Shown one piece after another: positions 6,950 through 22,945 of a DNA stretch of 64,000 nt. The stretch lies in the NCBI GenBank assembly GCA_963815215.1, contig CAWFFU010000003.1:352001-416000 (forward strand), in the 5' to 3' direction. The position numbers were made by a program, and so were the translations under genes. Under the pieces are notes generated by a model that made no database searches, had not been told where the DNA came from, and worked only from the letters and a program-made list of their open reading frames with translations. The DNA is from an uncultured Trueperaceae bacterium. Lineage in GTDB: Bacteria > Deinococcota > Deinococci > Deinococcales > Trueperaceae. Position 1 is the stretch's first letter. Every line of letters starts with the position of its first letter.

Positions 6950-6998
6950 GCACGCGCATGGGCCGCCGACGTGACGCGCCGGCGGCCCATGCGCGTGC
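6950..6998. terminator. Hairpin between convergent cyclophilin and thrS genes (likely bidirectional terminator)
   Basis: Perfect 19-bp inverted repeat GCACGCGCATGGGCCGCCG with an 11-nt loop; no U-tract. Confidence 0.7.
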
Positions 6999-8980
6999 TA
7001 GGCCGCGTCGCCTGCTAGCGGGGCCACCTCGGCTTGCCGCGAACGCACCGCCGCGTCCAGGTGTGCGATGAAGGCGTCGAGCGGGACCCCGTTACGGTTG
7101 CCCTCCTTGCGGCTGCGGAACGAGACCGCACCCGCTTCGGCTTCCTTGTCGCCCACGATGACGATGTAGGGGATCTTGAGCAGCTCCGCGTCGCGCACCT
7201 TGGCGTTCATGCGCTCGCCCCGGTCGTCGACCTCGGCGCGCAACCCGCCGTCGAGCAGGCGCTGCCGGATACGTTCGGCGTACTCGAGGTGACGATCCGC
7301 GATGGGCACCAGGCGCACGTGTTCCGGCGCCAGCCACAGCGGCAGGTCGCCGGCGAAATGCTCGATCATCACCCCCATGAAGCGCTCGGTGGAACCGGTC
7401 ACGGCGCGGTGGAGCACCACCGGCGTGTGCCTGTCGCCGTCCTCGCCGATGTAGCTGCACTCCAGCCGGGCTGGCTGGATGAAGTCGACCTGGATGGTGG
7501 AGAGCTGCCACTCGCGGCCCAGGGCGTCCTTGGCCATGAAGTCGGCCTTGGGGCCGTAGAACGCGGCCTCGCCGGTGGCCTCCTCGTAGGGCACGTTCTC
7601 GGCGTCGAGCGCACGGCGCAGGGCCGCGGTGGCCTTTACCCACTTCTCGTCGTCGTCGACGTACTTGCCCTCCTCACCGCGGAGGCTGAGCTGGACCCGG
7701 TAATCGGTCATGCGGTAGGTCGACAGCACCTCGCGGATCAGCCGTAGCGCCAGCGCGAACTCCTCCTGCACCTGTTCCTCCGTGCAGAAGATGTGGCAGT
7801 CGTCCTGGGTGAGGCTGCGCACGCGGGTCAGACCGGAGAGCTGGCCCGACTTCTCGTAACGGTACAGGGTGGCGAACTCCGCGTAGCGCAGCGGCAACTC
7901 GCGGTAGCTGTGGTGGCCGGCGTTGAACAGCGTCATGTGGCTGGGGCAGTTCATGGGCTTCAGCCGCATGCGGATCTCGTCGTCCTCCATGACGGGGTAC
8001 ATCACGTCGGCGTAGTTCTCGAGGTGCCCGGATCGGGCGTACAACGACTCGCGAACCATGTGCCCGGTCCATACATGCTGGTAGCCGTAGCGGGTCTGCA
8101 GCTCGCGCACGTAGCGCTCCATCTCGAAGCGTACGACTTCGCCGCGCGGGAAGAACATCGGTAGGCCGGCACCGATGTCCTCGCTGAAGGTGAACAGGCC
8201 GAGCTCACGTCCGAGCTTGCGGTGGTCGCGCTTCTTCGCCTCTTCGAGCAGCCACAGATGGTGCTTCAGCTCATCGGCGGTCTGGAACGCCACCCCGTAG
8301 ATGCGCTGCAGCATGGGGCGCCGCTCGTCGCCGCGCCAGTACGCTCCCGCCACGCTCATGAGCTTGAAGTGCGGGGCGATGGCGCCGGTGCGCGGCACGT
8401 GCGGGCCACGACACAGGTCGGTGAAGCCCTCCTCGCCCCCCTGTTCGTAGAAGGTGATGGGCTCGTCCTCGGGCAGATCCTCGATGAGCTCGACCTTGTA
8501 CGGATCGCCGCGCCGCCGGAAGCGCTCCAACGCCTCACTGCGCGGCAGCGCGTACTTGCGCAACCGCAGGTCGTCGGCGAGGATCCGGCGCATGATCGCC
8601 TCGATCGCCTCGAGGTCGTCCGGGGTGAGCGTGCGCGGCAGGTCGAAGTCGTAGTAGAAGCCGTCCTCGATCACCGGACCGACGCCCATTCGCACGGTGC
8701 CGGGCTCCGCGCCCTGTTGCGAGAAGTACTCGGTCACGGCCTGCGCCATGACGTGGGCCAGGGTGTGGCGCATCAGGTCGACGACCGCATCGTCCTTGCG
8801 GGTCAGGACGGCGACGTGGGCCTCATCGGGGACCTCGCTCATCAGGTCGGCGAGCCGGCCGTCGACCACGATGCCGAGCGCGGCCTTGGCCAACCCCGGG
8901 CCGATGGCCCGCGAAACGTCGGCGCCGGTGGCGTGCGCCGGCAGCTCCAAGCGCTTACCGTCGGGAAGAACAACATGCAT
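6998..8980 (-). CDS. thrS: Threonine--tRNA ligase
   Basis: TGS domain, HTLAH editing motif, DLCRGPH, LKPMNCP, QDDCHIF, AFYGPK, GSTERF; SD GAGGTG. Confidence 0.99.
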   Translation of the reverse strand: MHVVLPDGKRLELPAHATGADVSRAIGPGLAKAALGIVVDGRLADLMSEVPDEAHVAVLTRKDDAVVDLMRHTLAHVMAQAVTEYFSQQGAEPGTVRMGVGPVIEDGFYYDFDLPRTLTPDDLEAIEAIMRRILADDLRLRKYALPRSEALERFRRRGDPYKVELIEDLPEDEPITFYEQGGEEGFTDLCRGPHVPRTGAIAPHFKLMSVAGAYWRGDERRPMLQRIYGVAFQTADELKHHLWLLEEAKKRDHRKLGRELGLFTFSEDIGAGLPMFFPRGEVVRFEMERYVRELQTRYGYQHVWTGHMVRESLYARSGHLENYADVMYPVMEDDEIRMRLKPMNCPSHMTLFNAGHHSYRELPLRYAEFATLYRYEKSGQLSGLTRVRSLTQDDCHIFCTEEQVQEEFALALRLIREVLSTYRMTDYRVQLSLRGEEGKYVDDDEKWVKATAALRRALDAENVPYEEATGEAAFYGPKADFMAKDALGREWQLSTIQVDFIQPARLECSYIGEDGDRHTPVVLHRAVTGSTERFMGVMIEHFAGDLPLWLAPEHVRLVPIADRHLEYAERIRQRLLDGGLRAEVDDRGERMNAKVRDAELLKIPYIVIVGDKEAEAGAVSFRSRKEGNRNGVPLDAFIAHLDAAVRSRQAEVAPLAGDAA

Positions 8981-9031
8981 GCTGCACCTCAGAGATGTGG
9001 GTTGGGGATCTACAGGGCAAGGACCAGGGAG

Positions 9032-9121
9032 CTACGGGCATCCACCCGACGTTCGGCGCGTTCGGCGCGAGGTTGCGCAGGCACCGACGTGGGTCATCCG
9101 GGCAGGTCGCACGCTCGCCAT
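9032..9121 (-). CDS. Putative leaderless Thr-containing leader peptide of thrS (29 aa)
   Basis: TGTGCTACAGT, 5 nt, then ATG; MASVRPARMTHVGACATSRRTRRTSGGCP*; Thr at codons 10, 17, 21 and 24. Confidence 0.55.
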   Translation of the reverse strand: MASVRPARMTHVGACATSRRTRRTSGGCP

Positions 9122-9222
9122 GCGCCACTGTAGCACAGGCTCTTCGCCGCACTGCGCGTGACAGACGGGCTCGCGGCGACCCTAGCGGGGGCGCGAGCGG
9201 CGTGCGCGGTATCCTGGGCGCC

Positions 9223-10005
9223 ATGCACCTCGTCGCCGTCGTCAGCGCCGATGCGGACGTTCGCCATGCCCTGCGCACGTTCCGAGACGCCCAGGCCCGT
9301 TTCCTACTCCACCCGGTGCCCGCCGGCGGCATGAGCGAGCTCCTCAAAGCGCTCGCCCGCCTCGACTTCGCGGGCGCGCTGGTGCTCGACCCGAGCGCCC
9401 AGGCCGATGCGCTGCACTTCGCCGATCGCTGCTCCCTCGACGCCGAGGAGATCGGCGGCGCCGACACCGTCACCGTCACACCGGGCGGCGTGATCGCCGA
9501 GTACAACCTGGGGCGCGCCGTCGGAAGCCTGCTGGAGGCGGCACGCTGGGACGCCCGCGACGCAGACGTCGTGCTGCTCGGGGGCGGCGCCACGGCGCGC
9601 GGTGTGGCACGCGAACTGTCGAGCATGGGTGCGGCATCGCTTTCGGTGCTGGCGGAGAGCCCCGCCGACGCCGAGCACAGCCTGCCCGAGCTGGCCGCCG
9701 GCACCGCGGTGGTGGCCCGCGCGGCCCAGGACCCGCTGGTGCCCACTCTGCTGGAGCGCGCCGACCTGATGGTGCGCCTCGACGCTTCGGTGCGGGTGCC
9801 GGCGGCGCTGCTCGGCCCCCACCTGACGTTGCTGGACCTGCTGCCGGAGCCGGTGTCGGCGCTACGCAAGCGGGCCATGAGCGTCGGCGCGCTCACGTTC
9901 AACCGGCGCGACCTCGACGCCTACGCCATCGGCCTCGGCCTGACCCACATGCTGGGCGCCCCGGTCGGCGTGGAGCCGTTGCTCGAACTGTTCCACGCAC
10001 TCTGA
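9223..10005 (+). CDS. Shikimate dehydrogenase-like protein with degenerate active site
   Basis: AroE-like layout (IGGADTV, VVLLGGGATARGV); leaderless start after TATCCT 9210-9215. The ORF-track start at 8995 overlaps the thrS leader and is unlikely. Confidence 0.75.
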   Translation: MHLVAVVSADADVRHALRTFRDAQARFLLHPVPAGGMSELLKALARLDFAGALVLDPSAQADALHFADRCSLDAEEIGGADTVTVTPGGVIAEYNLGRAVGSLLEAARWDARDADVVLLGGGATARGVARELSSMGAASLSVLAESPADAEHSLPELAAGTAVVARAAQDPLVPTLLERADLMVRLDASVRVPAALLGPHLTLLDLLPEPVSALRKRAMSVGALTFNRRDLDAYAIGLGLTHMLGAPVGVEPLLELFHAL

Positions 10006-10055
10006 AGCCCGGTCTCATCAAGCCGCCGTTCCGACCTGCAAGACTCGCTGGGTCG

Positions 10056-11624
10056 GTGACCACTCTCCGTTCGCTCCTCCCTGCTGCTGTGGCGCTGCTC
10101 CTCGCTTTGTCGGGAGCGGCGTGGGCACAGTCGAGCACTCTCTATCGCCTGCCCGGAGCGTCGGTGCAGGTGGCGGACGGCGCCATCCGCTTGAGCTACG
10201 GCGGTACCGAGCTCACCTACGTCGAGGGTCTGGGGTGGCTCGGGGACGTCCGGGCCGATCCGCCCCAGGTCTCCCCCGCCGGCGTGCTGGTCGACGGCAC
10301 GGTGCTCGACGCCCTGGGCGTGTCGCTGCCGCGACTCGCCGACGTGCGCTTCGGGGGCGACGGAGACGTTCGTGTGGTCCTGGACGTGCGGGACCTGTCG
10401 CAGGGGGCCGTGAGCGGACTGGTGCGCGAGGGGGACGTGGCCAGCGGCAATCCGCTGACCCTGCACCTTCCCCCGCTGCTCCTGCCGGCCGCGTCACCCG
10501 ATCCGTACCACGGCGTCGAGGTGGCGGTGGATCCCGAGCCGGGCGGGGTGAAGGTCAGCGTCAGCGGCCCCGCATTCCACTACAAGGTGTTCCCCCTGGC
10601 CGATCCCACGCGCGTGGTGATCGACATCGTCCCGCAGAAGCAGGCGGCGCTACCCGAGATCCAGCGCACGCTCGCGCCCGGGGTGAGCTACCGGCGCTTC
10701 AATGCCCCGTCGTCGTCCGGAAGCAGCGTGGTGCACCTCATCTCGGTGGCCCCCGGCGACGCCGAGCTACGCGTGGTCGGGGCCAGTCGCGAGCCCAGGA
10801 CCCTGACGCAACTGACCTCGGGCGCCGTCGCAGGCATCAATGCTGGCTACTTCGATCCCAGCACCTTCGCCGCCGTCGGTCTGCTGCGTGTCGACTTCGG
10901 CGTGCTGTCGCTGCCCACGCGCAACCGCGCGGCAGTGGCGTTCGCTCCCGACGGCGCGACCATAGCGCGGCTACACGCGCATCTCAGCCTGCAGGTCGAC
11001 GGCCGCAGCGTCGACGTCGGGGAGTCCGGCAACGGCGAGGTCGGGGTGGCTACGGCGGCGGGCGCCCTGGTCGGAGATCCGCGCGTGGGCGTGATCACGG
11101 TGCAGCAGGGCGTGGTGCTCGGCAACCGGGTCGGGCCGCGGACCGTGCCCCCGTCCGGCTTCGCCCTGGTCTACCCGCCCGATCGCCGGCCCCTGGCGCG
11201 CATCGATGCCGGCGCTTCCGTGACGCTCGACATGCAGCTCCAGCCGGCCGCCTTCAATGCCGCGCCCTACGTGGTGGAGGCCGGCCCGCTACTGGTGAAG
11301 AACGGCCAGGCCGCCTTCGATCCCAGCGCCGAGGGGTTCCCGACCGGCCAACGCATCCTCGACGCCGTGACCCAGCAGTCGGCCATCGGCATCAAGCCCG
11401 ATGGCACGGTGCTGCTGGTCGTGGCCCAGTCGATGCGGGCGGCGGACCTGGTGCCGCTGTTCTTGCGCCTCGGGGCGCGCGATGCCATGCGGCTCGACAG
11501 CGGTTCGAGCGCCACCCTGGTCGCGGACGGCAAGCCGCTCAACCGGACCTTCGAGCGCAAGGTCGTGAGCGCCATCGTGGTGCGCGCCAAGCAGGCGGCG
11601 GTGGCGAGCCTCTCGAGCCCCTGA
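10056..11624 (+). CDS. Exported phosphodiester glycosidase (NAGPA-like) family protein
   Basis: Signal peptide; DPTRVVIDI (AMIN-like); AGINAGYF, EAGPLLVKNG, AMRLDSGSSATL. Confidence 0.85.
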   Translation: MTTLRSLLPAAVALLLALSGAAWAQSSTLYRLPGASVQVADGAIRLSYGGTELTYVEGLGWLGDVRADPPQVSPAGVLVDGTVLDALGVSLPRLADVRFGGDGDVRVVLDVRDLSQGAVSGLVREGDVASGNPLTLHLPPLLLPAASPDPYHGVEVAVDPEPGGVKVSVSGPAFHYKVFPLADPTRVVIDIVPQKQAALPEIQRTLAPGVSYRRFNAPSSSGSSVVHLISVAPGDAELRVVGASREPRTLTQLTSGAVAGINAGYFDPSTFAAVGLLRVDFGVLSLPTRNRAAVAFAPDGATIARLHAHLSLQVDGRSVDVGESGNGEVGVATAAGALVGDPRVGVITVQQGVVLGNRVGPRTVPPSGFALVYPPDRRPLARIDAGASVTLDMQLQPAAFNAAPYVVEAGPLLVKNGQAAFDPSAEGFPTGQRILDAVTQQSAIGIKPDGTVLLVVAQSMRAADLVPLFLRLGARDAMRLDSGSSATLVADGKPLNRTFERKVVSAIVVRAKQAAVASLSSP

Positions 11625-11683
11625 CGCCCGGCGGCGTCTGCCGCCACGCGGCGGGGCGCGGCGCGCTCGTATACTCGAAGCAC

Positions 11684-13147
11684 ATGAACCTCGCGACCGC
11701 CGGGTCGGGCCTCGAGCGTCGCGGCATCGTCCGCGTCGCGTTGGGGATCTGTATGGCGGCTGTACTCGCCGTCGTGCCGCAGGCCGCTGCGCAGACGGAT
11801 GGCGTGCGGGTCGAGCTCGGCCTCGGCGGCCACCTGGTGGTGGGCTCCTGGAACCCGTTGCAGGTCACGGTGCGTGACGCGGCTCCCAGCATGCTGCGGC
11901 TGCGCATCGACGAGGGTTCGTTGCTCGAGGGCCCGCGCATCGTGCGCTACAGCGCGTCCGTGCCCGGCGGCAGCGGCGTGACCGTGTTCCAGGACGACCT
12001 CTACCTGCCCGCTTTCCGCTCGTTGAGCTGGACACTGGCCAGCGGCCGCACCGTACTCGCCAGCGGCAGCCTGGGTCCCGGCGACGCCGACCCCCGTCCT
12101 CTACAGATCGTGCTCTCGGCCTCGCCGGGGAGCTGGCGCGGCGCCTTCGCCCCCGATGCCCGCATCGTCGACGTGGCTGCGTCCGACCTGCCGGCCCGCG
12201 CGGCCGCCTACGACGGGGTGCAGACCCTGCTCGTGGACGGCAGCGCTGCGGCGCCGCGCGCAGCGTCGCTCGCCGCCGCAGCGGCGGGGGGCGTCCAGGT
12301 GATGCTGGCCGGCGCGCTGCCCGCGAGCCAGGCGGGCCTCGCCAGGCTGGCAGGCGGCGGTACCGCCCGGCTCGGAGCGGGCGCGGTCGAGCGCGTCGCC
12401 GACGATCCCGCGGCCGTGCGAACGCGCCTCGCGGCGTGGCGGTCACTGGATCGATCGGCCCTGCTGCAGGCGCTGGCCGCCGAGCGGCTCGTCCAGCCAC
12501 CCGCAACGCCGGACCAGCCGCTGGTCCTGGCGCTGGCCGCCACCTATGCGCTGCTCGCCCTGCTAGCGTTGCGCTTCGGTGGCACGCCCGGCCTGGCAGC
12601 GGGCCTGGTGCTCGCGGTGGTGGTCTCGCTGGCCGGCTGGCGCCTGTTGCGGCCGCCGTCGCCGGAGCTGACGGCGTCGCGCACCGTTGTGCTGGGCGGC
12701 GGGGAGCTGGCGCTCGCGCTCCGGGTCGAGGAGCGGCTCACGTTGCCTTCGGGGGTGGCGAGCCTGCCGGGCGCCGGGCATCCGCTCTCCGGTCTGCCCT
12801 ACTCGGTCGATGACGGCGTCACCCACGTCGAGCTGCCTCGTTGGAATGCGGTCGCGGTCGCTGCGCGCCCGGTTCTGCGCCCGGCCGCGCTCCGTTTCGA
12901 GGACGGACGGTTGGCCAACAGCGGCGACGGTCCCCTGCGTGACGTCTACGTCCTCGGTCTGGGGCGCCAGCCCGACCTGGCGGCCGGGGCGTCGCGGCAC
13001 CCGGAGCCCGGCGAGGAGGGCGGCTTGCCTCCCGTGCTGACACGACTGTCGTCGCTCCTCCCCGCCGGCACGGCCCTGGCCCTGGCCCCTGAGGCGGTCT
13101 GGGTGGCGTTGCCCCCGTTGGACCCCGGAGCGGGAGGTCGACCGTGA
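11684..13147 (+). CDS. Exported/membrane hypothetical protein
   Basis: TATACT 11670-11675 lies 8 nt before ATG; signal peptide, GSWNPLQVTV, LPARAAAYDGVQTLLV, two TM helices; GTGA overlap with the next gene. Confidence 0.75.
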   Translation: MNLATAGSGLERRGIVRVALGICMAAVLAVVPQAAAQTDGVRVELGLGGHLVVGSWNPLQVTVRDAAPSMLRLRIDEGSLLEGPRIVRYSASVPGGSGVTVFQDDLYLPAFRSLSWTLASGRTVLASGSLGPGDADPRPLQIVLSASPGSWRGAFAPDARIVDVAASDLPARAAAYDGVQTLLVDGSAAAPRAASLAAAAAGGVQVMLAGALPASQAGLARLAGGGTARLGAGAVERVADDPAAVRTRLAAWRSLDRSALLQALAAERLVQPPATPDQPLVLALAATYALLALLALRFGGTPGLAAGLVLAVVVSLAGWRLLRPPSPELTASRTVVLGGGELALALRVEERLTLPSGVASLPGAGHPLSGLPYSVDDGVTHVELPRWNAVAVAARPVLRPAALRFEDGRLANSGDGPLRDVYVLGLGRQPDLAAGASRHPEPGEEGGLPPVLTRLSSLLPAGTALALAPEAVWVALPPLDPGAGGRP

Positions 13148-13791
13148 GCCGCGCCGGTTCCGGCCTCGGAGCACTCGGTCCGGTCGCGGACCGGCTCCGA
13201 AGCGCCGACATGCTGCAGGTGCTGGCGCTGTTCCTGGCCGCTCAGCTCTTCGTCATGGCGGTGCGCTGGCCCGGCGCGGGCGGCAGCAACGAGGCGTGGT
13301 TCGCTCTGGCCCAGGCCCGCATGGTGTTGCTGTCACTGGCCGCGCTCGGCTTCGGCGCTGCCGAGAGCGGCGGGAGCCCGCGCTCGAGGCGCGCCACCGC
13401 CGGCGCGTTGCTGATGTTCGTGGTCCTGTCCGCGCCCATCGACGTCGCCAGCTACGCCGCGAGCTACCCGGCGGTTCCGCTCTGGTGGTCGAGCCTCCTG
13501 CCGTTGCCGGAGACGCTCGCGTACTTCGGCGTCGGTCTGGCGCTGGGACGTGCGGCGACCTGGTCGCGGATCGGCGCCCTGCTCCCGCTGCTGGTCCCGG
13601 CGCTGCTGGTCGCCGGCATCTGGGCCGATGTGCGTCTGGGAGTCGACGTCTTCAACCCGTTGACGGCCGTCTTGCAGGTGTCGGTCGTCCATGCCGTGGC
13701 GATGATCTCGCTGGCCGCAGCGACGGCCGCCTGGCTGGCGCGGCGCAGTCCGCTCGAGCGGACGGACGAGGCTGGGGAGGAGGCGGCATGA
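13144..13791 (+). CDS. Polytopic membrane protein (about 6 TM, ABC-2 permease-like size)
   Basis: Hydrophobic helices; coupled on both sides (GTGA, ATGA). Confidence 0.75.
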   Translation: MSRAGSGLGALGPVADRLRSADMLQVLALFLAAQLFVMAVRWPGAGGSNEAWFALAQARMVLLSLAALGFGAAESGGSPRSRRATAGALLMFVVLSAPIDVASYAASYPAVPLWWSSLLPLPETLAYFGVGLALGRAATWSRIGALLPLLVPALLVAGIWADVRLGVDVFNPLTAVLQVSVVHAVAMISLAAATAAWLARRSPLERTDEAGEEAA

Positions 13792-15266
13792 TCCGTCCGA
13801 GCCGGCGCCAGCGCGCCAGCCGCCCCACCGCGGAGCATGCCTTCGCGCTGCACCTGCGCATCGCCGCGCGCAGTGCCTGGAGCACTCGCTTGCTGCGCGG
13901 CGCCGCGGCCGCCCTGCTGGCGTCGCTGATCGCGGCCGCCGCCGGCGCGTCGCCGTGGCTGCAGGGTGGCGGACTCTGCGGAGCCTTCGTCATCGCCGCC
14001 CTGGCCCCGGTTCGCGGCCATCGCGCGCGGGCCGTACGCTTCATCCGTGAGCGCGCCGGGCTGAGCTACGAGACCGCGCTCGAGCTCGACGCCGGGGCCC
14101 ACGATCCGTCGTTCGCCGACGCCGTCCGGGCCCGAGCCGTCGACAGCGTGCGCGACGTGCGCCTGCCCGATCTGCAGGCCTGGTGGCTGCCACTCTTGGC
14201 GGCGGCGCTGGCGCTGCTGCTGTTCCCGTTGGCGAGCCGCACGACGGTGTTCTCCGGAACCTCGAACGCCCCCGCCGCGACGGCGCAGCCGCCGGCGGCC
14301 ACGCCGAAGGGGCCGCAGTCTCGAAGCGTCTCCGCCCCGCCGGCGAGGGCACCGGAGCGCGCCCGGAACGGTGCCGGCGGCGCGTCGCAGGGCGCGGCCG
14401 CCGACGCGCCCACGGCTGCGGGAGCGGGCGGGCAGGGAAGCGACCAGCAGGTCCTATCGAACTACCTTCAGACGCTGCAGCAGCAGGCGCCGGCCGGTGC
14501 CGCACCGTCGGGCGATGCGGGCGCGGTCACCGACGGCGCGCCGACCGCGCCGTCCATGGCGCCGGGGGTGCCGACGCCCGGCGACACCCGCGGCGGGTCG
14601 GTCGGCAACGCCGGAACCGGCGCCCCATCCTCCGGCGCCCCATCCTCCGGCACGCAGGCCGGCGGGCCATCGTCGGGACAAGGGTCGAACGACGGAGCAT
14701 CCGGCTCTAGCGGCAGTGGTTCCGGCAACGAACCCTCGCAGGGAGCCGGCGGGGCCTCCCCGTCCTCGCCGTCCGCCCCGAGCCGCTCCGACGCGGCGCC
14801 ATCGGCGGGCACCGCAGCGACGGACGCCGCCGGCACGCAACCGCCCGGCGACAGCGTCGGCTCCGGGCAGAAGCCACAGCAAGGCGCTGCATCGGCGCCG
14901 CAACCCGGGGGAGGCAGCGCGGCGGGCGAGGCCGCCGGTCAACGGCAGGCCGCTGCGGCCGACGGCGGAACCCTGCCGGGCGCACGCAATGCCGAAGGGT
15001 CGGGCACCGGCGGCAACCAGCCGGGCTCTTCCGGCGCCGCCGGCCCCGCCGCCCAGGGAGCGGCACAACCGCCGCAGTTCCTCCCGGGCGACCTTCGTCC
15101 CGGCGCGCAGAGTGCCAGCGGCACGCTCCGACTCCCGGGCTCGAAGGATGTGACTCTGCCTCCCGGCACGTCGATGGACAGCTACCGGCGCGCGGCCGAG
15201 CAGGCGCTCACCGAGGGCGACGTACCGCTCGAGTACCAGGAGGTCATCCGCCGCTACTTCCGCTAG
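13788..15266 (+). CDS. Membrane protein with long Gly/Ser/Ala/Pro-rich region and C-terminal VPLEYQEVIRRYF motif
   Basis: SD GGAGGAGG and ATGA overlap at 13788; three N-terminal TM segments; low-complexity region including a 15-bp duplication at 14619-14648. Confidence 0.75.
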   Translation: MIRPSRRQRASRPTAEHAFALHLRIAARSAWSTRLLRGAAAALLASLIAAAAGASPWLQGGGLCGAFVIAALAPVRGHRARAVRFIRERAGLSYETALELDAGAHDPSFADAVRARAVDSVRDVRLPDLQAWWLPLLAAALALLLFPLASRTTVFSGTSNAPAATAQPPAATPKGPQSRSVSAPPARAPERARNGAGGASQGAAADAPTAAGAGGQGSDQQVLSNYLQTLQQQAPAGAAPSGDAGAVTDGAPTAPSMAPGVPTPGDTRGGSVGNAGTGAPSSGAPSSGTQAGGPSSGQGSNDGASGSSGSGSGNEPSQGAGGASPSSPSAPSRSDAAPSAGTAATDAAGTQPPGDSVGSGQKPQQGAASAPQPGGGSAAGEAAGQRQAAAADGGTLPGARNAEGSGTGGNQPGSSGAAGPAAQGAAQPPQFLPGDLRPGAQSASGTLRLPGSKDVTLPPGTSMDSYRRAAEQALTEGDVPLEYQEVIRRYFR

Positions 15267-15282
15267 GTGACGGCCGGCGCCG

Positions 15283-15897
15283 TCAGGAGCCGGAGGTCTG
15301 GCTCTGCAATGCGTGCCGGAGGGCTCCCACCACGGCCGGCGCGACATCGCCAACGCCCTCATCGCGCAGGGCGACGACGGCGGGGTCGGACTGGAGCGAG
15401 GGGAGTGCCTCGGCGGTGCTCTCGCGGCGACTGCGCTGCATCAGCGGGGCCTCGAAGCGGGCGACCACGGAATCGCTCGCTGTGTCGACCACGATCGCCT
15501 GGACCTGGACCGTGACGTCCACCGTGCGTGCGCTCCCGTCCTTGGATACCGTCACATCGCGCTTCATGTCGGGAGCTCCGATCAGTACGGAGTAGGCGGC
15601 GCCGTAGCTGCGGCCGATGCGGGCGGAGGCGGGCACCGCGCGATCGTAGAACAGATCGCTGTGCCCCTCCGCGAAGCGCATCGCCGCAGCGCTGACGAAG
15701 GCGAACGGGAGCGGTCCCTGCGCGCGCATCTCCGACACCAGCAGGGCGGCGCTCCCGCCGATCCTGCCCTGCGCGGGACCGTTGATCACGGCGACCAGAG
15801 GTTGCGCCCCGGGGGCGGCGGCGGGCGCGCAGGCGACGAGCATCAGGGCGAGCGTTACGAGCGCCATCGTCAGGTTGCGGATGCGGGATGTCCTCAC
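15283..15897 (-). CDS. Putative lipoprotein
   Basis: Basic N-terminus, hydrophobic core, lipobox LVAC. Confidence 0.75.
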   Translation of the reverse strand: MRTSRIRNLTMALVTLALMLVACAPAAAPGAQPLVAVINGPAQGRIGGSAALLVSEMRAQGPLPFAFVSAAAMRFAEGHSDLFYDRAVPASARIGRSYGAAYSVLIGAPDMKRDVTVSKDGSARTVDVTVQVQAIVVDTASDSVVARFEAPLMQRSRRESTAEALPSLQSDPAVVALRDEGVGDVAPAVVGALRHALQSQTSGS

Positions 15898-15961
15898 ACC
15901 CTACATGCTGCCACCCGCATCGCCGGCGATGCGTAGCCGCGGCGTCAGCGAGCGAGGATCG

Positions 15962-16585
15962 TCACCGCCCGGGCGGCCCCGACGCCCCGTCGTCGAGCTC
16001 GATCCGCGCTTCCCCGCGGGTGAGCTCCGCCAAACGGCGCCGGAGCCCGTCCGCGTCCGCCTCGGGCACTACCAGGGCCACGCGAACGCCCTGCGGCTCG
16101 AACGCCGGGTCCTCGCGGTGGACGCTGGGAAGCGCGTCGAGTTCGCGCAGAAGCGAGTCGACGAAGGCGAACGGGGCGCGGACGGAGATCCGGACGGTGG
16201 TCGGTACCTCGCGCTCGCCGGCTGCCTGTACCGCCCGGGCCACGGCGCCGCCGTAGGCGCGCGCCAGGCCCCCGGCGCCCAGCTTGCGCCCCCCGAAGTA
16301 GCGCACCACGACCGCCGCCACGTGATCGAGGTCGCGCTTGAGCAACACCTCCAGCATCGGCCGACCGGCCGTGCCGCCGGGCTCGCCGTCGTCGGAGAAA
16401 CGCTGCTCCCGGCCCACGCGGTATGCCCAGCAGTGGTGGCTGGCGTCGGGGTGGGCGGCGCGTTGCGCCTCCACCAGCGCCAGCGCCTTCGTCGTGTCGG
16501 TCACGGGCGCCACCGTGGCGATGAAGCGCGATCCCATCACCATGTCTTCGTGCTCGGCGGGTCGGAGCAGCGATCGGTAGCCCAC
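15962..16585 (-). CDS. yigZ: YigZ/IMPACT family protein
   Basis: SRFIA, ASHHCWAY, SDDGEPGGTAGRPML, VVVRYFGGRKLGAGGL; TAGACT 8 nt before GTG. Confidence 0.95.
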   Translation of the reverse strand: MGYRSLLRPAEHEDMVMGSRFIATVAPVTDTTKALALVEAQRAAHPDASHHCWAYRVGREQRFSDDGEPGGTAGRPMLEVLLKRDLDHVAAVVVRYFGGRKLGAGGLARAYGGAVARAVQAAGEREVPTTVRISVRAPFAFVDSLLRELDALPSVHREDPAFEPQGVRVALVVPEADADGLRRRLAELTRGEARIELDDGASGPPGR

Positions 16586-16638
16586 GGCCGATCAGTCTAC
16601 TCCCCGGAGCGACGCGGCCCCGTGCTACACTCTGCTCC

Positions 16639-16695
16639 ATGGTGACGCCGGTGATGAAGATCTACCTGCCGCGATGTCTGCGTCACACCGCCTGA
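16639..16695 (+). CDS. Putative leaderless Cys-containing leader peptide of cysS (18 aa)
   Basis: TGcTACACT, 7 nt, then ATG; MVTPVMKIYLPRCLRHTA*; TGT at 16675-16677. Confidence 0.55.
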   Translation: MVTPVMKIYLPRCLRHTA

Positions 16696-16763
16696 CCCTC
16701 GGTCCCAGCTACAGCCAGTGCCTTCGCGGGCGCGTTCCCGCCCGCTCTCATGCGAGGAGTGCC

Positions 16764-18182
16764 ATGGCGCTTGAGTTCTACAACAGCCTCAGCCGCAGCA
16801 AGGAAGTCTTCGAGCCGGTGGTCCCCGGCCGCGTCGGTATCTACATGTGCGGCCCTACCGTCTACTCCGAACCGCATCTGGGCCACGCGCGCGGGCCCAT
16901 CGTGTTCGACGTGCTGCGGCGCTGGCTCGAACACAGCGGCTACGTCGTGCGCTTCGTGTCCAACGTGACCGACGTCGGTCATCTATCCGACGTGGAGGAA
17001 GGCGAGGACAAGCTCCAGAAGCGCGCACAGCTCGAGCGGCTCGAGCCCATGGAGGTCGCGGAGAAGTACTTCTGGGCCTACTTCGACGCCATGGCGCGCC
17101 TGAACGTGCGGCGCCCCGACGTGGTCCCCCGGGCGTCGGGGCACATCATCGAGCAGATCGAGCTCACGCGCGTGCTGCTCGACCGGGGCTTCGCCTACCG
17201 CAAGGACGGTAACGTCTACTTCGACGTCTCCGCCTTCGAGCCCTACGGCGAGCTGTCGGGCCGCGATCCCGACGAGCTGATGGAGGGCACGCGGGTGGAG
17301 GTGCGCTCCGACAAGGACGACCCGCGCGACTTCGCGTTGTGGAAGAAGGCCGAGGAAGGGCACATCATGCGCTGGCCGAGCCCCTGGGGCGAGGGCTTCC
17401 CCGGTTGGCACATCGAGTGCTCGGTGATGAGCACCAAGTACCTCGGCGACGAGTTCGACATCCATGGCGGTGGGCTCGATCTGATCTTCCCCCACCACGA
17501 GTGCGAGCTCGCCCAGGCGCGCGCGGCCGGCAAGCCCTTCGCGCGGGTGTGGCTGCACTGGAACATGATCACGCTCGAGGGCGAGAAGATGGCCAAGTCG
17601 AAGAACCACTTCGTCACCCTCTCGAAGCTTTTCGAACGCTACGACCCGGTCGCCGTCCGCTTCCACCTGCTCCGCTCGCACTACCGCAGCGTCTCGGATT
17701 TCTCCGACGAGAGCCTCACGGCGTCGGCGCAGGGACTGAAGCGCCTGCGCGAGAGCTACCGGCAGGTGAGCGGAGGGGCCGAAGGCGAGCCCACGCCGGG
17801 GGCGTTCGACGGTCTGCGCGCGCGCTTCGCCGAGGCGATGGACGACGACATCAACACCCCCCAGGCGCTCGCCGTACTCTTCGACGGAGCGCGTGAGATC
17901 AACCGCCGCGTCGAGCAGGGTGCGAGCCCCGAGTACCGGGGCGCCGCGCGCGCGTTCTTCCACGACCTGCTCGACGGGGTGCTCGGTATCCCCGCGCAGG
18001 CCGAGGCGGCCGGTCAGACGCGCGACGCGATGGATGGACTGGTCGGTATGCTCCTGGACGAGCGGCAGCGGGCGCGCGCGCGCCGCGATTTCGACGCATC
18101 CGATGCGATGCGCGCGCGGCTCGAGGCGCTCGGCATCGAAGTCGAGGACACCCCCGAAGGGACCCGCTGGAAGCTGGCGTGA
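16764..18182 (+). CDS. cysS: Cysteine--tRNA ligase
   Basis: [46 protein letters not shown]. Confidence 0.99.
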
Positions 18183-21454: not shown

Positions 21455-22945
21455 GTGCCCGATTTCGTTGTTGCGCTGGACCAGGGAACGACCAGCTCGC
21501 GCGCGATCCTGTTCGATCGCGCCGGCTCCATCCGCGCGCTCGCGCAGCGCGAGTTCGAACAGCTCTACCCTCGGCCGGGTTGGGTCGAGCACGACCCCAC
21601 CGAGATCTGGTCGTCGCAGGCGGCGGTCGTGGGCGAGGTGCTGGCGAGGGCCGGCATCCGCGCCAAGGACGTGGCCGCAGCCGGGATCACCAACCAGCGG
21701 GAGACTACCGTCGTGTGGGACCGGAAGACCCTGGAACCGGTGCACAACGCCATCGTCTGGCAGGACCGCCGCACCGCCGGTCTGATCGATGCGCTGCGCG
21801 TCGAAGGCTTCGAGTCGGAGGTCCAGTCGAGGACCGGTCTGGTGCTGGATGCCTACTTCTCGGGCAGCAAGCTGGCCTGGCTGCTGGACAATGTGGATGG
21901 GTTGCGGGCCCGGGCCGAACGAGGCGAGGTCGCCTTCGGCACGATCGACAGCTGGCTCGCCGCGCGCCTGAGCGGTGGTGAGCTGCATGTCACCGATATC
22001 TCCAACGCCAGCCGCACCATGCTCTACAACATCCACGAGCGAGACTGGGACGACGTCCTGCTCGAGCGCCTGCGCATCCCCCGCGCCATGATGCCGCAGG
22101 TGCGGTCCTGCTCCGAGATCTACGGCACCATCCGCGAAGGCGGCCTCGCCGGCGCGCCGCTCGCCGGTATGGCCGGGGATCAGCAGGCCGCCACCTTCGG
22201 GCAGACCTGCTTCGAGGCGGGGCAGGTCAAGAACACCTATGGAACCGGTTGCTTCCTCGTGCTCAACACCGGTCCCGTGCCGACGCGCTCGGCCAACCGC
22301 CTGCTGACCACCGTCGCCTGGGACGTGGGCGGCGAGGTCGACTTCGCCCTGGAGGGGAGCATCTTCATGGCCGGAGCGGTGGTGCAGTGGCTGCGCGACG
22401 GGCTGGGTCTCATCCGCTCGGCGGAGGAGGTCGAGGGACTGGCCGGGAGCGTTCCCGACAACGGTGGCGTCTACCTGGTTCCCGCGTTCGCGGGGCTGGG
22501 GGCGCCGCACTGGGATGCCTACGCCCGCGGCACGGTGGTGGGGCTGACGCGTGGAAGCAGCGCCGGGCATCTTGCCCGGGCCGCCTTGGAGGCGATCGCC
22601 TTCCAGGTCGCCGACGTCGTCGAGGCCATGCAGGCCGACAGCGGCTCGCCGATCGGCGAGCTTCGCGTCGACGGCGGCGCCGCCCGCAACGACCTGTTGA
22701 TGCAGCTCCAGGCCGATATCCTCGGCGTTCCGGTGGTGCGCCCGACGATCACGGAGACGACGGCGCTGGGCGCGGCCAACCTGGCCGGACTGGCCGTCGG
22801 CTTCTGGACGGGCAAGGAGGAGCTGGCGAGCCACTGGAAGGTGGACCGCCGCTTCGAGCCCGCCATGGCGGACGCCCGACGCGAAGCGTTGATGCACGAC
22901 TGGAGGCGCGCCTTGGAGCGCGCCGGAAGGTGGGTGGAAGCATGA
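21455..22945 (+). CDS. glpK: Glycerol kinase
   Basis: [52 protein letters not shown]. Confidence 0.99.

Follow-up and report, generated by a model that had tools for sequence, protein, structure and literature searches.

Leaderless-type leader ORFs with a CGA-cognate codon pair precede thrS and cysS in a Trueperaceae bacterium and are probable amino-acid sensors

Leader anatomy at thrS and cysS

The window considered here is a stretch of 64,000 nucleotides (nt) from an uncultured Trueperaceae bacterium (contig CAWFFU010000003.1, positions 352,001 to 416,000 of the forward strand), taken from a genome of 3.3 Mb and 70% GC. It carries two aminoacyl-tRNA synthetase genes, thrS and cysS, and each of them is preceded by a short open reading frame (sORF) that begins a few nt behind an extended -10 promoter element and contains the codon cognate to the downstream gene directly after the arginine codon CGA. 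Judged from their sequence and conservation, these sORFs very probably are leaderless, amino-acid-sensing leader ORFs. The parts listed for both genes by the original prediction, namely the -10 element, the ATG that follows it, the ORF with a CGA-cognate pair, a spacer of 51 nt (thrS) or 68 nt (cysS) and a Shine-Dalgarno (SD) sequence, are all present. In window coordinates, the features at thrS are as follows:

6998..8980, minus strand: thrS, threonyl-tRNA synthetase (ThrRS), 660 amino acids (Pfam TGS, tRNA_SAD, tRNA-synt_2b and HGTP_anticodon)
9127..9135 (read 9135-9127), minus strand: extended -10 element of the thrS leader, TGcTACAGT, followed by 5 nt and the ATG at 9121
9032..9121, minus strand: thrS leader ORF, start ATG at 9121, 29 codons plus the stop TAG (9034-9032), peptide MASVRPARMTHVGACATSRRTRRTSGGCP
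9050..9064, minus strand: two in-frame CGA-ACG (Arg-Thr) pairs, at 9064-9059 and 9055-9050, the proposed sensor
8981..9031, minus strand: thrS spacer, 51 nt, C-rich and G-poor, with no stable hairpin, ending in the SD sequence GAGGTG (8990-8985)

The corresponding features at cysS are:

16764..18182, plus strand: cysS, cysteinyl-tRNA synthetase (CysRS), 472 amino acids (Pfam tRNA-synt_1e, DALR_2 and CysS_C), start placed by alignment to relatives
16623..16631, plus strand: extended -10 element of the cysS leader, TGcTACACT, followed by 7 nt and the ATG at 16639
16639..16695, plus strand: cysS leader ORF, 18 codons plus the stop TGA (16693-16695), peptide MVTPVMKIYLPRCLRHTA
16672..16677, plus strand: CGA-TGT (Arg-Cys) pair, the proposed sensor
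16726..16745, plus strand: GC-rich hairpin with arms GCGGGCG/CGCCCGC, followed by UCUC, 8 nt 5' of the SD sequence, -13.5 kcal/mol

The two CGA-ACG copies in the thrS leader form a 9-nt direct duplication. Without its final 12 nt, the thrS spacer contains 46% C and 13% G. Its skew, (C-G)/(C+G), amounts to 0.57, the genome background being 0.01 +/- 0.19 with 0.4 reached by 2.4% of upstream windows, and the excess of C over G is kept at thrS, with values of 0.44-0.83 across 11 short-spacer leaders. The best hairpin in this spacer amounts to just -6.3 kcal/mol, and the same-genus relatives have none better. ThrRS matches are present in 40 of the 41 genomes searched, the closest named relatives being metagenome-assembled genomes (MAGs) labelled Deinococcales, Deinococci and Trueperaceae.

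The cysS leader peptide of the window contains one Cys codon only, and the SD sequence GAGGAG, at 16754-16759, lies at the end of the 68-nt spacer. The hairpin in this spacer is shared by the same-genus leaders, with changes in both arms (for instance in leaders L037 and L038). An ATG at 16674, within CGATGT, shares the cysS frame and opens a 502-amino-acid ORF (16674-18182). We rejected it as the cysS start, the extension being closed in most relatives (open frame 495 versus 533 amino acids), and annotators should be aware that it could give rise to a spurious 502-amino-acid gene call.

Regarding the promoters, TGnTAnnnT is found 4-9 nt ahead of the sORF start in all 15 thrS leaders of relatives with CGA-ACN, as well as ahead of the sORF ATG in 22 cysS leaders of relatives. 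A strict sigma-70 promoter scan found no -35/-10 pair at the thrS or the cysS leader. Between the two synthetase genes lie plus-strand ORFs at 10121-13147 (1008 amino acids) and 13296-15266 (656 amino acids), both with no Pfam match, and on the minus strand a gene of 207 amino acids (15962-16585), which diverges from the cysS leader, belongs to the UPF0029/IMPACT family.

Conservation across the order and choice of codons

ThrRS and CysRS loci came from a set of 40 related genomes, made up of 9 that share the window's genus, 15 from the same family but different genera, and 16 that represent four more families of the order. The 300 nt 5' of each gene were read for leaderless-type sORFs, defined as TANNNT followed after 4-9 nt by ATG or GTG, with an in-frame CGA-ACN pair required for thrS and CGA-TGY for cysS. 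Such sORFs occur at 15 of 29 usable thrS loci and at 22 of 30 cysS loci in the initial sets; once eight extra loci per gene from families f2 and f5 are added, the counts become 23/37 and 22/38. The CGA-cognate sORF is also found in relatives at metG (12 of 29 loci) and at trpE (17 of 30). In 100 dinucleotide-preserving shuffles the mean counts are 0.13 for thrS, 0.12 for cysS, 0.03 for metG and 0.01 for trpE, with a maximum of one locus, although neither these shuffles nor the locus counts can be read as p-values or probabilities, because related genomes are not independent. The expected excess of cognate-codon sORFs over shuffled controls is thereby borne out at all four genes (23/37, 22/38, 12/29 and 17/30 against at most 1). 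In addition, the CGA-ACN sORF is absent from all 76 ThrRS control loci that are not labelled Deinococcales, Deinococci or Trueperaceae, and it is present in 2 of the 80 ThrRS loci retained, both of them from Deinococcales or Deinococci MAGs. These control loci, mostly from Bacillota and Chloroflexota and including no named Deinococcus, served as a control and for labels only.

Outside the two codons, the leaders of relatives have diverged beyond alignment. At 15 of the 29 usable thrS loci the reading frame is kept together with CGA-ACN and an in-frame stop close by, with the stop 2 codons past the sensor in 9 of these 15 leaders, while the frame, start and stop are kept at 22 of the 30 cysS loci. 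Particularly, CGA-ACN is common to three unrelated thrS leader peptides: ...RRTSG in the window's own family, MKP..HSGLVMRG..VTRTLSA in f2 and VMSFFWTARTTRTPCGV in f5, each followed by the stop. In f2 the sensor region reads ACG-CGA-ACT. The position of the cognate codon directly after CGA, already pointed out in the original prediction, is the best-conserved feature of all (23/37 thrS and 22/38 cysS loci).

As a separate observation on the f2 thrS leaders (L230-L233), the conserved codons for HSGLV, CCGGUCUGG, near the beginning of the leader ORF, are fully complementary to CCAGACCGG, which lies directly before the U tract about 130 nt downstream. This complementarity suggests a long-range helix that would be part of a terminator, and a second hairpin in the same leaders extends across the sORF stop codon.

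The genome of the window contains further leaders of this kind. With gene calls that were crude (longest ORFs filtered on GC content at third codon positions) and with the downstream genes named by NCBIfam, we found 273 leaderless-type sORFs near gene starts, 44 of which start with ATG and have an in-frame CGA. Pfam searches located 22 synthetase-type genes, and CGA-cognate leaders are found at three of them: thrS, cysS and metG. In about eight other synthetase genes, TANNNT lies 4-9 nt ahead of the gene's own start codon, which agrees with the earlier remark that many other genes here are simply leaderless. Outside the window, the CGA-cognate leaders are located as follows:

C4:105637-107997, minus strand: metG, with a 13-codon leaderless-type sORF, MNRRMTGCRPGSD and stop, containing CGA-ATG
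C11:149858-151669, minus strand: trpE, with an sORF, MSVLHSWTGTLGRWRHSLA and stop, containing CGA-TGG

The trpE leader peptide, M.VLHSWTGALGRWR.., is kept at the amino-acid level across the family, with CGA-TGG invariant; the trpE leaders in other families of the order have a WWW run instead of CGA-TGG. Taken over thrS, cysS, metG and trpE, the predicted CGA-cognate design is kept across five families of the order, and the proposal of a lineage-wide set of leaderless amino-acid-sensing upstream ORFs very probably holds.

The choice of codons at the sensor is strikingly narrow. CGA stands directly before the cognate codon at 74 loci over the four genes, whereas another Arg codon as the sole Arg before the cognate codon is found at no thrS, cysS or trpE locus and at 3 metG loci, all with CGG. 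The sensor codon itself is ACG in 14 and ACT in 1 of 15 distinct thrS leaders (a set chosen for CGA-ACN), and TGT in all 21 distinct cysS leaders, even though TGC was allowed and is used 6.4 times as often as TGT in the genome. The trpE leaders, ..SWTGALGRWR.., are informative in this regard: the Gly codon before Arg is GGG, GGC, GGA or GGT, the Leu codon varies among CTC, CTA, CTG and TTA, and of 12 cases with Arg after Trp, 11 have CGC, CGG or CGT for it, whereas the Arg before Trp is CGA in 14 of 14 distinct leaders (a motif-selected set). Such synonymous variation is a signature of translation.

CGA accounts for 5.7 per 1000 codons, or about 6.6% of Arg codons, as counted over 2,431 crudely called ORFs. 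AGA, though even less common (0.98 per 1000), is unused before sensor codons, so that rarity alone is insufficient to explain the choice of CGA. With respect to its decoding, the genome has a tRNA-Arg(ACG) gene and a TadA-like deaminase (145 bits, with a cut-off of 150). A tRNA-Arg(UCG) called by ARAGORN at C3:573539-573617 (L149; 79 nt, 78.5% GC) has no match to the Rfam tRNA model and an aberrant T arm, and was set aside as a probable false call. CGA is therefore most likely inosine-read, probably by tRNA-Arg(ACG to inosine-CG) through inosine-adenosine (I:A) wobble.

Some other sORFs of the genome resemble these leaders in part and were rejected as CGA-cognate cases. In the leuC leader, CGA precedes Ile and Gly and not Leu; neither CGA-TGC in the argG sORF nor CGA-AGG in the ileS sORF is a cognate pair; and a poly-Cys sORF on C3 near 330.6 kb precedes a tyrosine recombinase and is probably due to chance. 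The sORF ahead of argG (C11:279340-280973, L082) is of the leaderless type, has 13 codons, MLRCRNGIRCATP and stop, and includes three Arg codons, among which is the CGA that precedes TGC; the sORF may be an arginine-related leader or a product of chance.

A model for ribosome-mediated attenuation and its alternatives

The anatomy of the leaders, their conservation and their codon specificity are direct observations, and on this ground we consider it likely that the elements at thrS and cysS are ribosome-mediated attenuators built on leaderless leader peptides. Transcription from the extended -10 promoter would begin on the A of the ATG or immediately beside it, as promoter geometry and the mapped starts of Deinococcus deserti indicate, and a 70S ribosome would then translate the short ORF. 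When charged tRNA-Thr or tRNA-Cys is scarce, the ribosome would pause while CGA occupies the P site and the A site, at the single cognate codon, stays empty, and this pause would lead to higher expression of the downstream SD-led synthetase. CGA would itself be part of the sensor, I:A wobble slowing or weakening local decoding in such a way that this one position would depend unusually strongly on the concentration of the ternary complex that is to enter. Since CGA would slow or weaken decoding, one codon may suffice where classical leaders need runs. The sensor codons, TGT for Cys and ACG or ACT for Thr, are in addition often rare or wobble-read.

In support of a role for CGA, a single CGA in the Salmonella his leader has been reported to cause strong stalling (Chevance et al., 2014; PMC4046918), and inhibitory codon pairs that contain CGA have been described in yeast to stall the ribosome with an empty A site and a decoding-incompatible conformation of the mRNA (Tesina et al., bioRxiv 10.1101/755652). 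The likeness to both cases lies in an inosine-read CGA that is slow and, in yeast, in a CGA that hampers decoding of the next codon; the difference is that those are general translation effects or engineered reporters, whereas here CGA occurs in natural leader peptides. We tentatively suggest, as an idea that is somewhat less likely than not, that CGA-X could be a general sensitising device, in which an inosine-read CGA in the P site leads to poor acceptance of the next aminoacyl-tRNA and a single codon reports the charging of its tRNA.

The output that we favour is termination of transcription, which would involve the U-tract-poor hairpin at cysS, the action of Rho on the C-rich spacer at thrS, and an intrinsic terminator with its antiterminator at metG. 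A Rho gene is present in the genome (Rho_RNA_bind match at C3:218517-218732), and because the thrS spacer is C-rich, G-poor and unstructured, Rho-dependent attenuation at thrS is a reasonable proposal. In this regard, thrS resembles tnaC-type Rho-dependent attenuation, which has likewise C-rich, G-poor, unstructured RNA past the leader stop and a Rho gene.

The metG leader is the most explicit of the three. After its sORF, the hairpin GGGCGCCGUC/GACGGCGCCC followed by UUCUUUCUU forms a textbook terminator, and a GC hairpin with a U tract lies 6-23 nt past the stop in all 12 metG leaders. In the fold of the ribosome-free RNA the terminator is displaced by an antiterminator that uses sORF nt ~8-31, and in a model in which the RNA can fold only from 13 nt beyond the first base of the P site onwards, a simplification of the ribosome footprint, the antiterminator strand begins just beyond a ribosome placed at CGA/AUG. 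The metG leader keeps its length of 13 codons and its Pro-Gly codons, apparently since CCCUGG makes up one of the antiterminator strands. At pheS (L080), leuS (L063) and leuC (L084), too, a leaderless-type sORF is followed by a canonical terminator with hairpin and U tract, and the sensors at pheS and leuS are single rare codons, TTT and CTA.

Several results weigh against this interpretation. Concerning the output, a scan for hairpins with T runs gave nothing at either leader; folding, too, showed no terminator-like hairpin at thrS, and the hairpin at cysS has no U tract and no antiterminator was found for it. In an equilibrium model, the probability of the cysS hairpin is 0.9-1.0 at almost all ribosome positions in most leaders, and equilibrium folding of 13 thrS and 22 cysS leaders gave no consistent unmasking of the SD sequence by a stalled ribosome. 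Single-sequence folds are no stabler than shuffles (z = 0.84 and -0.33), the consensus energies obtained with RNAalifold for same-genus leaders are weak (-7 and -11 kcal/mol), and even at metG no more than about 4 of 12 leaders have the equilibrium switch where the sensor lies. Concerning the codon pair, CGA is not universal: it is absent from the Cys-run cysS leaders of f2 and f5 and from those leaders of other families that have Trp or Thr runs, and the pheS (GCC-TTT) and leuS (CGG-CTA) leaders have no CGA before the cognate codon. The Cys runs are seen in cysS leaders of f2 and f5 and also in some members of the window's own family. Moreover, the P-site effect of I:A wobble has been demonstrated in yeast and not in bacteria, and the related genomes are non-independent samples.

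Alternative explanations have to be weighed against these results. That both ORFs are open merely by chance in GC-rich DNA between genes is barely credible: an order-wide conservation far above shuffles, the lack of the feature at all 76 control loci outside the lineage and the precedent published for D. deserti (PMC4007540) speak against it, even if high-GC genomes are rich in spurious ORFs and this one contains 674 short frames of the form TANNNT-N4-9-ATG/GTG. It is also improbable that the sORFs are translated and conserved but constitutive, loading 70S ribosomes for reinitiation or shielding the 5' region from Rho, with cognate codons that are incidental. Many leader genes have been argued to serve reinitiation (Korolev et al., 2016; PMC4833913), to which unstructured spacers would be suited, as they would be to scanning, and no stall-dependent structural switch could be modelled at thrS or cysS. 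The 51-68 nt spacers, however, lie far above the 10-16 nt peak given in that paper. In addition, the cognate match is seen at four genes, for Thr, Cys, Met and Trp, all low-frequency amino acids, and it survives while the remaining peptide diverges.

At least as improbable is an action of the CGA-N motif as a signal at the RNA level, be it a protein operator or one strand of an SD-masking helix. The model for such an operator is E. coli thrS, where a mimic of the tRNA-Thr anticodon arm is bound by ThrRS; stable anticodon-like stem-loops were not found beside the thrS SD sequence here (best -6.3 kcal/mol), nor does any stable hairpin lie there. In favour of a helix, an RNAalifold consensus of 8 thrS sequences joins the sensor block to the SD block, and CGAUGU lies in a small hairpin loop in some cysS leaders. 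We nevertheless rejected the sensor-to-SD helix, which has three internal mismatches and is not general in distant leaders, and for which there is no covariation evidence because both strands are invariant. Conservation is limited to the six bases that make up the two codons, and a match to the anti-SD is not general, because the flanks vary (ACGUC, ACGCG, ACGUG, ACGCC). The second codon, on the other hand, follows the downstream gene as the genetic code predicts, and in-frame starts and stops are conserved.

A further alternative shares the sensing step with the attenuators proposed here and differs in the output: the stalled ribosome would open a duplex that hides the ribosome-binding site (RBS) of the synthetase. 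We consider such a translational output unlikely, yet worth keeping in mind. Its architecture, in which a leaderless sORF precedes an SD-led gene, is that of the mycobacterial polycysteine sORFs, for which the mechanism has been demonstrated (Canestrari et al., bioRxiv 10.1101/834739), and a U-tract terminator is absent at thrS and cysS. Against it, the probability in the equilibrium model that the SD sequence is unpaired does not rise consistently upon stalling, going from 0.15 to 0.18 in L001 and from 0.37 to 0.36 in L031.

Relation to known systems and significance

Ribosome-mediated attenuation by leaderless peptides, as favoured here, has a clear precedent. Differential RNA sequencing of D. 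deserti placed transcription starts at the A of the ATG of leader peptides, those of thrS and cysS included (de Groot et al., 2014; PMC4007540). Table S9 of that paper gives 14 leaderless leader peptides before synthetase or biosynthesis genes (tyrS, thrS, trpS2, trpE, metG, aspS2, leuC, leuS, asd, cysS, ilvB, leuA, DAHP synthase and pheS); transcription attenuation was proposed there as a prediction, and T-boxes were assigned to valS and glyS. The idea that the system was undescribed consequently does not stand, the thrS and cysS leaders having been predicted for D. deserti in 2014. The leaders of the window share with those of D. deserti a -10 box just upstream and an SD sequence before the main gene, and the f2 thrS and cysS leaders closely resemble, by eye, the Deide_06409 and Deide_16409 peptides of Table S9. 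They differ in that the genome of the window is Trueperaceae-like and not Deinococcus proper, and they differ at the level of the peptide: the thrS peptide of the window cannot be aligned to that of D. deserti except for an Arg-Thr near the end, and the cysS peptide shares only the Cys codon, the D. deserti leader having two Cys with no Arg before them and that of the window one Cys preceded by CGA. The 2014 paper describes peptides "rich in specific residues", and its main text mentions neither CGA nor rare codons nor codon pairs. A side observation belongs here: on the minus strand of C12 (oriented 21572-21674), a 33-codon leaderless-type sORF with an aromatic cluster, ..GYGYVWYRT.., lies 118 nt before a gene of 339 amino acids and resembles the published leader of the D. 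deserti DAHP-synthase gene.

The classical attenuators of E. coli are trpL, hisL and thrL and, for a synthetase gene, pheM-pheST. Both they and the leaders described here are based on a short same-strand ORF with codons cognate to the regulated gene, and at metG, pheS, leuS and leuC an intrinsic terminator comes right after the ORF, as in the classical cases. The classical leaders, however, are SD-led and have runs of 2-7 regulatory codons, whereas the leaders of this genome have a predicted leaderless ORF with one or two sensor codons plus CGA, and at thrS and cysS the canonical terminator is absent.

In mycobacteria, polycysteine leaderless sORFs forming a "Cys ribulon" are reported to sense cysteine by ribosome pausing, which unmasks an RBS (bioRxiv 10.1101/834739). 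The cysS leader of the window would be alike in having a leaderless sORF before an SD-led gene and, as predicted, in sensing cysteine. As presented in the preprint, the mycobacterial sORFs have a poly-Cys tract, precede cysteine metabolic operons and act through an experimentally shown SD-sequestering duplex, in contrast to the single Cys codon, the synthetase gene and the absence of modelled SD unmasking here.

T-boxes perform the same task as the one proposed for the leader ORFs, that is, to provide more synthetase when the cognate tRNA is uncharged, but they do so by RNA-tRNA pairing and not by means of the ribosome. No Rfam family matches the thrS or the cysS leader, and the T-box model (RF00230) has no match in 8900-9300 or 16540-16840 at E-values up to 10. 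Across the whole genome, the Rfam T-box scan gave only one match, sub-threshold, ahead of ileS (C3:217398-217498, L148; 34.8 bits); this T-box-like leader starts with a 7-codon sORF, MRGRRRL and stop. The valS leader (C3, L061) contains the string GGTGGTACCGCG, which we take to be the T-box core, and the genome-wide search gave no match there. Given the sub-threshold match at ileS and this string at valS, leader ORFs and T-boxes appear to coexist in the genome. The suggestion that the organism uses such ORFs instead of T-boxes is therefore only partly right: no T-box is matched at thrS or cysS, but traces of T-boxes are seen at ileS (34.8 bits) and probably at valS.

Our search of the literature, which left subscription-only papers outside its scope, found no case of CGA as part of a natural bacterial leader-peptide sensor. 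What appears to be new, and what we have not come across in published work, is that a single and often rare sensor codon is preceded almost invariably by CGA. Together, our findings agree with the 2014 prediction for D. deserti, widen it to Trueperaceae plus three other families of the order, and add to it a codon-level rule, namely a rare CGA just before the sensor in four unrelated leader families, at 74 loci as against 3 with another Arg codon. If CGA indeed sensitises the neighbouring A site, single-codon attenuators would have a simple explanation, and a synonymous change from CGA to CGC would be a direct test of it. The same property would offer a search pattern for leader peptides that lack amino-acid runs, as well as a compact part for amino-acid-responsive switches. 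If true, these leaders would be a natural case in bacteria of the effect that inhibitory codon pairs are known to have in yeast.

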